Shown: in pieces, positions 18,195 through 18,927 of the stretch
How positions within the stretch are numbered: position 1 is the first letter of the stretch
Layout of the letters: every line of letters starts with the position of its first letter
DNA from: a virus
Taxonomy: Duplodnaviria > Heunggongvirae > Uroviricota > Caudoviricetes
Virus record (IMG/VR): IMGVR_UViG_2703718839_000004
Coordinates: 1-20,958 of that record
Strand: one strand, 5' to 3'
Length of the DNA: 20,958 nucleotides
Position numbers and translations under genes: made by a program
Notes under the pieces: model-generated
What the model was told of the DNA's origin: nothing
The model's input: the letters and a program-made list of their open reading frames with translations, nothing else
The model's database searches: none

Positions 18195-18198
18195 ATAC

Positions 18199-18231
18199 TT
18201 GACAATGTACCTTTGAGATACATAATGTACC
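18199..18231 (+). promoter_or_regulatory. pL-like promoter with an embedded operator-like site
   Basis: TTGACA (18199-18204) -16/17 nt- CATAAT (18221-18226); the spacer carries TGTACC-tttga-GATACA plus a second TGTACC (18226-18231), the same half-site and spacing as the operators between the repressor and cro genes. Confidence 0.55.
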
Positions 18232-18927
18232 CAAAAGAAACATGAAGCAGGCAAGATTCAAACAAAATTTGGTTGTAACACGGCGTATGGCACATGCGTC
18301 GTTAGCGGTCTGGAGACGTTAAAGGGGACAATCCACTCCTTGCTCGGGCAAACAAACCAGGTAGCCGGAATGTGCAAGTCAATGAGGATGCTGATAAGAC
18401 GCCTAACCAGCGTGGCGATTCGGTTTGACGCCTGGGAAGAGACCAGGGTGCAACGATGAGGGCATTTATGGAACCGCGACAAAGTGTGGTGCCGTAACTG
18501 GCTAAGTGCTCTCTGCGTTGTGGTAATCCGCGAAATGGCGCGGCGGTAAGTATGGCGGGGTTACTCTTTCCCCGTTGAGGACACCGGGTTGTCAGGTTGA
18601 CCATACGCCTGAGTGACAACCCCACCACAACTGCCATTGCTTTGGCGGTACCAGTTTTTTCCTTAGTCCTTTCTGGCACCGCCCTTTTTACAAAACAGAG
18701 AAGAGCATCACCGGACGATGGGCTCATAACCCAATCCATCCGGCAGTGACTACCGCAGGTGTTCTTCTCTGTTTTGTGGAGAAACTAACCGCCCCTGCAG
18801 AGGTGCTCTGGCTGATGCCCGCCCTCAGGCAAAATATGTTTCTGCTATCTGGCAGAGGTTTATTCCGACAAGATGCACTGAAATTTGATATTACTGCCCG
18901 TGTGCAGCGGGCTAAGTGGAGAAACAT

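Follow-up and report, generated by a model that had tools for sequence, protein, structure and literature searches.

The leader of the phage λ N gene carries an RNase III site and a long hairpin ahead of the first gene, and the tRNA cluster of phage T4 holds stable non-tRNA RNAs, known as species 1 and 2. The put RNAs of phage HK022 act without phage proteins (PMC9378689), the C4 RNA of P1 is a substrate of RNase P, which also makes the 3′ end of MALAT1 at a tRNA-like structure (PMC4919922), and ROOL and GOLLD are phage RNAs of unknown function that are often found near tRNA islands, with tRNAs sometimes lying inside GOLLD (PMC12286853). Here, we describe a non-coding RNA locus in a lambdoid prophage, contained in a stretch of viral DNA of 20 958 nucleotides (IMG/VR record IMGVR_UViG_2703718839_000004; the whole stretch is referred to below as the window). 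The locus lies within positions 18195–18927, behind a predicted repressor-controlled early promoter, and comprises two structured RNA modules, A and C, followed by a predicted intrinsic terminator, T, and a hairpin, D (Table 1). An initial annotation of the window had proposed for this interval a promoter followed by a structured RNA or an antitermination region; the promoter and the structured RNA were borne out, whereas module A (the largest part), the link to tRNAs and the wide distribution had all been missed, and membership of the nut or HK022 put families did not survive closer comparison.

Module A is defined by covariation. Homologues were collected by a 22-mer scan of IMG/VR (120 stretches), a scan of the GTDB species genomes and from annotated phage records, and 25 sequences less than 93% identical to each other formed alignment A1. 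In pairwise alignments, invariant stretches were interspersed with hairpins whose sequence varies and whose pairing is kept, and the core resolves into five covarying or invariant helices, a loop-to-junction pseudoknot and the long stalk P6. Across the five helices, 97.1% of alignment cells hold standard pairs, compared with 27–43% when the partners are slid, and 11 pairs are changed on both sides, a count reached by none of 500 shuffles. The paired changes include G-C to A-U in P1 and U-A to C-G in P2, together with the variants ACGC/GCGU, GGGA/UCCC and ACGA/UCGU of P4 and CCUGG/CCAGG, CCUCG/CGAGG and CCGG/CCGG of P5. The stalk occurs in homologues with the strand pairs GAGAGCA/UGCUCUC, AAGAGCA/UGCUCUU, GAUGGCU/AGUCAUC, AAAAGGCG/CGCCGUUU and AAGCGCACUCC/GGGAGUGCGCU, and pairing is always kept. 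The G-U pairs of P1, P2 and P4 would become A-C mismatches on the opposite strand, and the + strand is therefore the RNA strand of module A.

Two pseudoknots complete the core. In PK1, the P1 loop GCACAU complements an AUGUGC located 75 nt downstream; both strands are invariant, which places this pairing beyond the reach of covariation. In PK2, the partner of the conserved 7 nt P4 loop is the junction GGU(G/U)U, and the variable loop and junction bases are C and G in 75 sequences, A and U in 72, and mixed in none; the switch has taken place at least twice independently, once in the lineage of the window and once in a Kosakonia copy. A covariance model of the A core finds one copy in the window (148 bits) and no second one, and finds none in the K-12 prophage e14 or in HK022. 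The nonamer at 18508–18516 that had been read as a boxA-like signal (TGCTCTCTG) is part of the 3′ strand of P6. Homologues have UGCUCUUUC, GUCAUCUUC or GCGCUUCC in its place, with the partner strand changing to match, and no N-like gene follows; a nut-like element can thus be discarded.

Module C was aligned independently, from a second IMG/VR scan that yielded 49 unique variants, 23 of which entered alignment A2. Its closing helix, H1, H3 and pseudoknot are standard-paired in 97.4% of cells, compared with 26–49% for slid partners, and 10 pairs are changed on both sides, again a count that none of 500 shuffles reached. H3 alone occurs as GGGUUGUCA/UGACAACCC, GGGUUACCA/UGGUAACCC, GAGCUACCA/UGGUAGCUC and GGAUCACCA/UGGUGAUCC. 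The invariant H3 loop CCAUACGCC pairs with an upstream GGU(AA)GUAUGG, in which the sole variable position changes from U-G to C-G. The closing helix allows U-G and G-U wobbles (GUUGUGGC with GCUGCAAC), which identifies the + strand as the RNA strand of module C also. Both hairpins pointed out in the initial annotation are real, the one at 18528–18543 being H1 and the one at 18556–18574 being H2. Modules A and C each show compensatory changes beyond the controls, and on one strand. Because the GUUG at 18517–18520 belongs both to the base of P6 and to the closing helix of C, the two helices compete locally.

Other combinations of these parts also exist. In five loci (L154, L156, L159, L162 and L227), module C and a P6-like stalk stand behind a different conserved 5′ domain (GGAGACCAACACGCUGCC...CCCUGAAAAGUCAGGG), and the A-core model makes no detection in loci with this other domain before module C. 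A pyrimidine-rich loop motif, UUCCCUUGA, which reads UUCCUUAG at 18655–18672 of the window, recurs in many homologues in the variable hairpin within P2 and in the loop of T.

In its homologues, module A keeps company with tRNA genes. In all P1-type loci, a tRNA with anticodon CAU (tRNA-Met according to ARAGORN, tRNA-Ile in the annotation of the P7 record) ends about 92 nt before the 22 nt anchor motif of A, and in P1 and P7 the 5′ extension of A starts a few nucleotides past the CCA end of this tRNA-Ile. On the other side of the module, tRNA-Arg(UCU) starts at the last base pair of P6 in all phiV10-type loci; in phiV10 itself, the Rfam tRNA match covers L004:2742–2815 and P6 ends at 2742. What follows the junction CGUUG|UGG is tRNA-Arg(UCU) in phiV10, in SPN1S and in Klebsiella phage ST512-KPC3phi13.3, but in lambdoid loci it is a non-tRNA cassette closed by GUUGUGGN...NCCACAAC. 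Several unrelated types of cassette occupy this place, one of them being module C of the window, which fills the exact slot that holds tRNA-Arg(UCU) in the epsilon15-like phages. The cassette of the mEp460/Tyrion type has a D-arm-like and a T-arm-like hairpin, and cassettes in Klebsiella and other loci have canonical T-loops and large insertions. In some loci, a P5-like hairpin, a P6 stalk and a slot are repeated in tandem. In the arrays of L141, L153, L168, L172 and L176, the repeated unit is a GNAAGAG-type hairpin, a P6-like stalk with a CAAC...GUUG base and a slot cassette, and in some of the slots the cassette is a tRNA-like RNA that has D- and T-arms as well as large insertions.

The element is widespread. 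By BLAST, window positions 18252–18800 are conserved in many lambdoid phages, with about 94% identity in phages 2H10, cdtI, Ayreon and Stx2c phages and 84% in mEp460. Parts of the query are present in 4769 of 5426 complete Escherichia coli genomes; module A is found in 1375 of the 5426, nearly full length in 1174, with 255 places on plasmids. The copy in E. coli UMNF18 (NZ_AGTD01000001.1, 3252860–3253107) is 100% identical to that of the window across module A. Module A also occurs in prophages of Salmonella, Klebsiella, Enterobacter, Citrobacter, Kosakonia and Erwinia, and in P1-type plasmids. The scan of GTDB species genomes gave 22 real hits, 21 of them in Enterobacterales (Escherichia, Citrobacter, Klebsiella, Enterobacter, Kosakonia, Kluyvera, Phytobacter, Pseudescherichia, Superficieibacter and ‘Ca. 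Erwinia dacicola’) and one on a 1.7 kb contig that carries the A motif and is binned, if the binning is taken as given, in a metagenome-assembled genome of the Bacillota. Twelve sampled E. coli records in RefSeq show no feature over module A.

The similarity is piecewise, and the genomic context differs from phage to phage. In P1 and P7 the A piece lies between tRNA-Ile and ban, and in epsilon15-like phages (phiV10, SPN1S, Tyrion and Klebsiella phage ST512-KPC3phi13.3) it lies in the gap between the portal-side genes and the terminase. Stx2a phages carry the element far from pL, about 5 kb from one record end, and mEp390 has a different 3′ domain downstream of the A core. In P7, module C (L001:653–749) is located between the C1 operators of the ban operon (581–608), whose promoter C1 controls, and a strong terminator (774–799), which stands within 25 nt of the module and ahead of the tRNAs and ban; the distance from the end of the P7 A core to the start codon of ban is about 90 nt. 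Across the contexts examined, the modules have no phage protein gene as a constant neighbour. Two further observations concern these loci. The leader of the P7 ban operon, from tRNA-Thr to tciA/terB, contains additional RNA-like pieces at L001:1865–1949 and 2062–2177, resembling tRNA-Sec (46.6 bits, threshold 47) and STnc100 (43 bits, threshold 47). Enterobacter phage Tyrion (L128) encodes an int-alpA RNA (RF02996, 44 bits, above threshold) at 3098–3162, downstream of its module A unit and in the same moron region.

The initial annotation had noted the lack of a convincing open reading frame (ORF) in the interval, and the homologues agree. All ORFs on the + strand are at most 62 aa long, and Pfam returned no match for any ORF of the interval on either strand. 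Drift by codon position is flat in the 145 aa ORF of the − strand (49/55/55 variable sites over 73 unique homologues), and its alignment contains gaps of 1, 2, 8, 10 and 22 nt; the repressor gene, used as a control, gave 35/18/141 and no gaps. The very small basic peptide proposed earlier (26 aa, 18242–18322) starts upstream of the homology boundary at 18252, overlaps helix P1 and is not present in mEp460, P7 or phiV10. From pL up to the xis gene there is no protein-coding signal. We therefore consider it highly improbable that the locus is a decayed protein gene, a group of small unrecognized protein genes or a site that works at the level of DNA, for instance an origin or recombination sequence. 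Short hypothetical proteins are indeed annotated across the modules in some phage records, and K-12 e14 has a real protein gene, ymfJ, where modules A and C would be. However, the annotated ORFs vary in strand and position from record to record, the ymfJ region shares no sequence with A or C, and a coding or DNA-level function is at odds not only with the flat profile and the frame-breaking gaps but also with paired changes that keep helices intact and wobble pairs that are valid on one strand alone.

Downstream of the modules, T has an 11 bp G+C-rich stem followed directly by CUUUUUAC (−16.2 kcal/mol, z = −4.5), with a single A-C mismatch in the stem of the window copy. The stem changes among homologues, while UUGGCGG...CCGCC and the U-tract are kept, behind every type of slot; the phiV10 counterpart was scored as a 14-pair terminator by our scan, which also called the terminator at L001:774–799 as the P7 counterpart. 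A G+C-rich stem, an immediate U-tract and a conserved position together mark T as a predicted intrinsic terminator. A short hairpin at 18630–18649, which the scan had also called as a terminator, was rejected for this role as it is not conserved in homologues. In epsilon15-like phages (L004:2818–2840 in phiV10) and at several chromosomal loci, a conserved hairpin, AUCACG-CCUAAGGAC-CGUGAU, stands ahead of T, after tRNA-Arg and also after many cassettes; it is absent from the window.

The outer stem of hairpin D closes a branched apex, with GGGCUCAUAACCC at 18720–18732, and covaries (AGAGAA/UUCUCU versus ACACAA/UUGUGU); folding is stronger on the + strand (z = −6.3) than on the − strand (z = −3.9). 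The small variable hairpin beyond it occurs with the stems CGACC/GGUCG, GCCCC/GGGGC and GGCGG/CCGCC, and homology with other phages ends near 18800. In K-12 e14, an unrelated ymfJ/ymfI segment replaces A and C, and T and D are kept inside ymfH. The annotated ymfH (b1142; L239:370–681, − strand) overlaps the T–D module, which is 86% identical to window positions 18642–18800, and Pfam finds nothing in either ymfH or ymfJ. The K-12 ymfH is probably an RNA structure rather than a protein gene.

The locus is placed where λ has its early-left operon. The window contains a cro-like gene on the − strand and an S24/LexA-type repressor gene on the + strand (17486–18160), whose terminator (stem-loop at 18171–18190 and then the U-run) is directly followed by a near-consensus σ70 promoter. 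This promoter is the top promoter-like site within 17100–19200, and its spacing predicts a transcription start near A18233. The operator motif TGTACC-N5-GGTACA is matched four times in the window (at 17402, 17452, 18206 and 18226) against 0.55 matches expected, and none of 100 shuffles reached four. Two of the operators lie between cro and the repressor gene, the third is in the promoter spacer and the fourth covers the −10 to +1 region, so that the promoter is overlapped by operators of the divergent pR/pRM region, as in a pL. The repressor–promoter block is 95.5% identical to that of K-12 e14, up to 18256, and in e14 both ymfJ, the gene next downstream, and intE undergo late SOS induction (PMC11002266). 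Taken together, the promoter, the operators and the shared e14 block mean that the repressor-controlled pL suggested by the initial annotation is a well-founded prediction, and one that opens onto a non-coding structured RNA.

Table 1. Positions of the predicted and covariation-supported features of the pL-side interval and its flanks (window coordinates)
Feature	Position	Strand	Remarks
Intrinsic terminator of the S24/LexA-type repressor gene	18171–18197	+	8 bp stem, UUCG loop, U-run
pL-like σ70 promoter (predicted)	18199–18226	+	TTGACA-16-CATAAT, 11/12 matches
Operators (two copies)	18206–18222; 18226–18242		1 and 2 mismatches, respectively, to TGTACC-N5-GGTACA
Module A, structured RNA	18267–18520	+	Covariation
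A, 5′ extension	18267–18279	+	
A, helix P1	18280–18285 with 18297–18302	+	
A, pseudoknot PK1	18290–18295 with 18370–18375	+	Invariant
A, helix P2	18309–18313 with 18357–18361	+	
A, variable hairpins	18314–18356 and 18376–18398	+	
A, helix P4	18399–18402 with 18410–18413	+	Loop CUAACCA
A, pseudoknot PK2	18405–18408 with 18422–18425	+	
A, helix P5	18431–18435 with 18443–18447	+	
A, stalk P6	18451–18464 with 18507–18520	+	Variable insert 18465–18506
Module C, pseudoknotted three-helix cassette	18517–18631	+	Covariation
C, closing helix	18517–18524 with 18624–18631	+	
C, helix H1	18528–18532 with 18539–18543	+	
C, pseudoknot	18545–18555 with 18601–18609	+	
C, helix H2	18556–18560 with 18570–18574	+	
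C, helix H3	18586–18594 with 18614–18622	+	
T, intrinsic terminator (predicted)	18644–18691	+	GGCGGUACCAG, 18 nt loop, CUGGCACCGCC, then CUUUUUAC
Hairpin D	18690–18777	+	20 bp outer stem, 18690–18709 with 18758–18777
Small variable hairpin after GGAGAAACUAAC	18789–18805	+	Variant stems keep pairing
xis-like ORF	18928 (ATG)–19134	+	Assigned by position and size
391 aa ORF in integrase position	19095–20270	+	Placed by ORF list and gene order

Pfam gave no match for the xis-like ORF, and the order of this ORF and the 391 aa ORF is the same as that of xisE and intE in e14. Both would be reached only by read-through of the predicted terminator T. On the cro side, successive ORFs are about 30 nt apart, and the window has a module-like element on the pL side only. 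The pR-side operon contains a full-score C4 antisense RNA (82.8 bits; 16055–16142, − strand) beside an isrK RNA (63.7 bits; 16167–16243, − strand), both inside a mechanically called 278 aa ORF (15767–16603) whose match in phage Ayreon is annotated as a protein; the C4–isrK pair is also present in mEp460 (L003:234–422).

The interpretation that we favour, and to which we give a little less than an even chance, is that the locus is organized like a tRNA operon: on induction it would yield non-coding RNAs that are processed and stable, and T would attenuate the transcription that continues into xis–int. We infer a unit of this kind from the fact that module A abuts real tRNAs in two unrelated groups of phages, and that module C holds the place of a tRNA and has an acceptor-like closing helix. 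Once the repressor is inactivated, host RNA polymerase would initiate at pL, near 18233, and produce a non-coding transcript of about 455 nt that would end at T. This transcript is predicted to fold into two independent RNAs, A with its double-pseudoknot core and P6, and C with its pseudoknot and acceptor-like closing helix, in a layout resembling that of a tRNA operon, as the base of P6 abuts the +1 position of tRNA-Arg in the epsilon15-like phages. By analogy with tRNAs, maturation enzymes may release A and C as stable RNAs, with RNase P cutting at U18519/G18520 and RNase E or exonucleases trimming the 3′ ends. T would fix the 3′ end of the transcript, and only a fraction of polymerases would pass hairpin D into xis–int. 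The target of the stable RNAs is probably a host component, for example the translation and tRNA apparatus, RNase P or RNA polymerase, since no phage protein accompanies the modules consistently.

Several observations weigh against this interpretation. Neither ARAGORN nor the Rfam tRNA model calls module C a tRNA, so that cleavage by RNase P at C is an argument by analogy; module C was also rejected as a tmRNA, with ARAGORN reporting zero genes in the window and Rfam no tRNA match within 18100–19000 at E values up to 10, and it shares with tRNAs only the acceptor-like closing helix and the position in the slot. Minimum-free-energy folding of A alone was unexceptional (z = −1.3) and conflicted with the covariation model, and was not used for that reason. 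Lastly, in Ayreon-like lambdoid phages the fetched stretch has annotated early-left genes behind T, none of them N-like, an arrangement that fits antitermination at least as well.

Indeed, nascent C, A or both could bind the polymerase that has just made them and render it resistant to T and to later terminators, allowing expression of xis–int here and of the long early-left operon in related phages. Such protein-free processive antitermination, put-like in logic and unrelated to HK022 put, is possible but rather doubtful. It would account for the fact that the modules stand at the 5′ end of six kinds of transcription unit, namely those of three different lambdoid immunity regions, of P1 Pban, of the epsilon15-like moron and of PPompW-type loci, and that an intrinsic terminator with co-oriented genes behind it invariably comes next. 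In the window and in P1/P7 alike, module C has an early promoter on one side and an intrinsic terminator on the other, P1 must pass its terminator to reach ban, and e14 intE is induced despite T and D upstream. No N-like gene lies downstream: in the window the xis-like ORF comes next, and in Ayreon a 126 aa protein that Pfam does not match and whose N-terminus is not evidently arginine-rich in the manner of N; Pfam likewise finds nothing in the first downstream ORFs of Ayreon and mEp460. However, the HK022 put-like element suggested initially could not be upheld. When module C and the whole region were compared by blastn-short with the fetched HK022 immunity region, in which putL and putR had been located by eye, only chance matches of 9–13 nt appeared, none at the put sites, and C has the different fold of a closed, pseudoknotted three-helix RNA. 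Nothing comparable is found on the pR/cro side, where put phages carry putR. A plain tRNA can replace the cassette, A lies 2.4 kb from the promoter in P1, just before ban, and the element of Stx2a phages is remote from pL, all of which count against this reading.

Regulation in trans or by ligand appears less probable still. Module C, with T as its 3′ end, might be a C4-type antisense regulator acting in trans or in cis after release by RNase P, with the cassettes as specificity determinants. The closing helix with internal hairpins is C4-like, many types of cassette are interchangeable within one frame, and a 3′ terminator hairpin with a U-tail, such as T would provide, is typical of enterobacterial small RNAs. 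We nevertheless regard this as unlikely: the C4 model (RF01695) matches the same bases weakly (21.3 bits, E = 0.23), on the opposite strand and far under the gathering score of 45 bits, and was rejected as a description of module C, whose most conserved loop is engaged in the pseudoknot. When A, C, D and the leader were searched for complementarity to the rest of the window, the best matches of A and C were 9–11 nt, which is the level of chance; a lone 15 nt hit proved to be an identical ribosome-binding-site-like string rather than a complement. It is quite unlikely that the A core controls whatever follows it (ban in P1, a tRNA or cassette elsewhere), whether as a riboswitch-like sensor or as a self-cleaving ribozyme. 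Its invariant junction nucleotides, two pseudoknots and variable peripheral hairpins do resemble aptamer or ribozyme cores, and its proximity to the ban start codon in P7 would suit such a role. Yet there is no common expression platform, the downstream partners vary between ban, tRNA, cassettes and the distinct 3′ domain of mEp390, no metabolic gene family is associated with it, and the Rfam ribozyme and riboswitch models do not match.

The modules may have a broader meaning. It is possible, although we would not count on it, that A and P6 together form the conserved scaffold of a modular RNA platform of phages. The tRNA slot, framed by CAAC...GUUG and GUGG...CCAC, would then take up one payload RNA or another, be it a real tRNA, a tRNA-like RNA with large insertions or a pseudoknotted cassette of which C is an example, and the units could be arrayed in tandem. 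If this is true, temperate enterobacterial phages, including P1, lambdoid and epsilon15-like phages, deliver stable RNAs that seize or shield a host machine, for instance by acting as decoys against defences that target tRNAs or by modifying RNA polymerase through RNA alone, and the best-studied phages harbour a new class of RNA-based function. Alternatively, the locus could represent a second, unrelated case of RNA-only antitermination.

P1 and the lambdoid phages have been studied heavily and E. coli is the most annotated of genomes, and an RNA family supported by covariation has still found no match in Rfam 15. Modules A, C and D have no match among the Rfam families, at gathering or permissive thresholds, in the window and in eight related loci alike; across the interval, E values up to 10 admitted only the sub-threshold, wrong-strand C4 match and chance hits. 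No description of the module A family was found in the literature searched by sequence string and by topic, a search whose coverage excluded subscription journals. The element would be the first thing transcribed when the repressor falls, and is coupled to tRNAs for rare codons. Several annotated ‘hypothetical proteins’ look like mis-called RNA, probably including K-12 ymfH.

How does this locus compare with the systems already described? Its map position, directly after pL, is that of λ nutL and the N leader, and hairpin D precedes the first gene as does the RNase III site of the λ N leader; unlike λ nutL, it has no conserved boxA, no boxB-type loop and no N gene. Species 1 and 2 of T4 are structured non-tRNA RNAs that are co-transcribed with tRNAs and owe their ends to tRNA-processing enzymes, much as the modules would be co-transcribed with tRNAs or tRNA-like structures. 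MALAT1 and its tRNA-like mascRNA offer a similar precedent, in which ends are made by tRNA enzymes (PMC4919922); there is no sequence relation to either system, and processing in our locus would be of the same kind by inference. The C4 RNA of P1/P7, which is present in the same phages, is cut from a longer transcript by RNase P via an acceptor-like helix (PMC4919922), and shares with module C a closing stem with internal hairpins, but C has a pseudoknot and we found no target sites for it in the window. Like HK022 put, the modules are RNA located just past pL and upstream of terminators in a phage with no N-like protein (PMC9378689). However, put works in cis on RNA polymerase, via the β′ zinc-binding domain, to suppress termination, and consists of two stem-loops of about 70 nt, compared here with a chain of pseudoknotted modules of about 250 nt and 115 nt, and put copies follow both pL and pR, whereas the present element is confined to the pL side. 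The Pas small RNAs described in a 2026 preprint are encoded in the late region and are different. The closest resemblance is to ROOL and GOLLD, which are also encoded by phages and prophages, adjacent to tRNAs, pseudoknotted, built from conserved and variable parts, and without a protein partner (PMC12286853). As there is no Rfam match, homology to them is not detectable, and the present RNAs differ in being smaller (about 250 nt for A and about 550 nt for the whole locus), in having been found here only in Enterobacterales and on the one Bacillota contig, and in standing behind a repressor-controlled early promoter. Module A defines a distinct, smaller and enterobacterial family whose nearest relatives in kind are ROOL and GOLLD, and which could serve as a tractable gammaproteobacterial counterpart to these unexplained RNAs.

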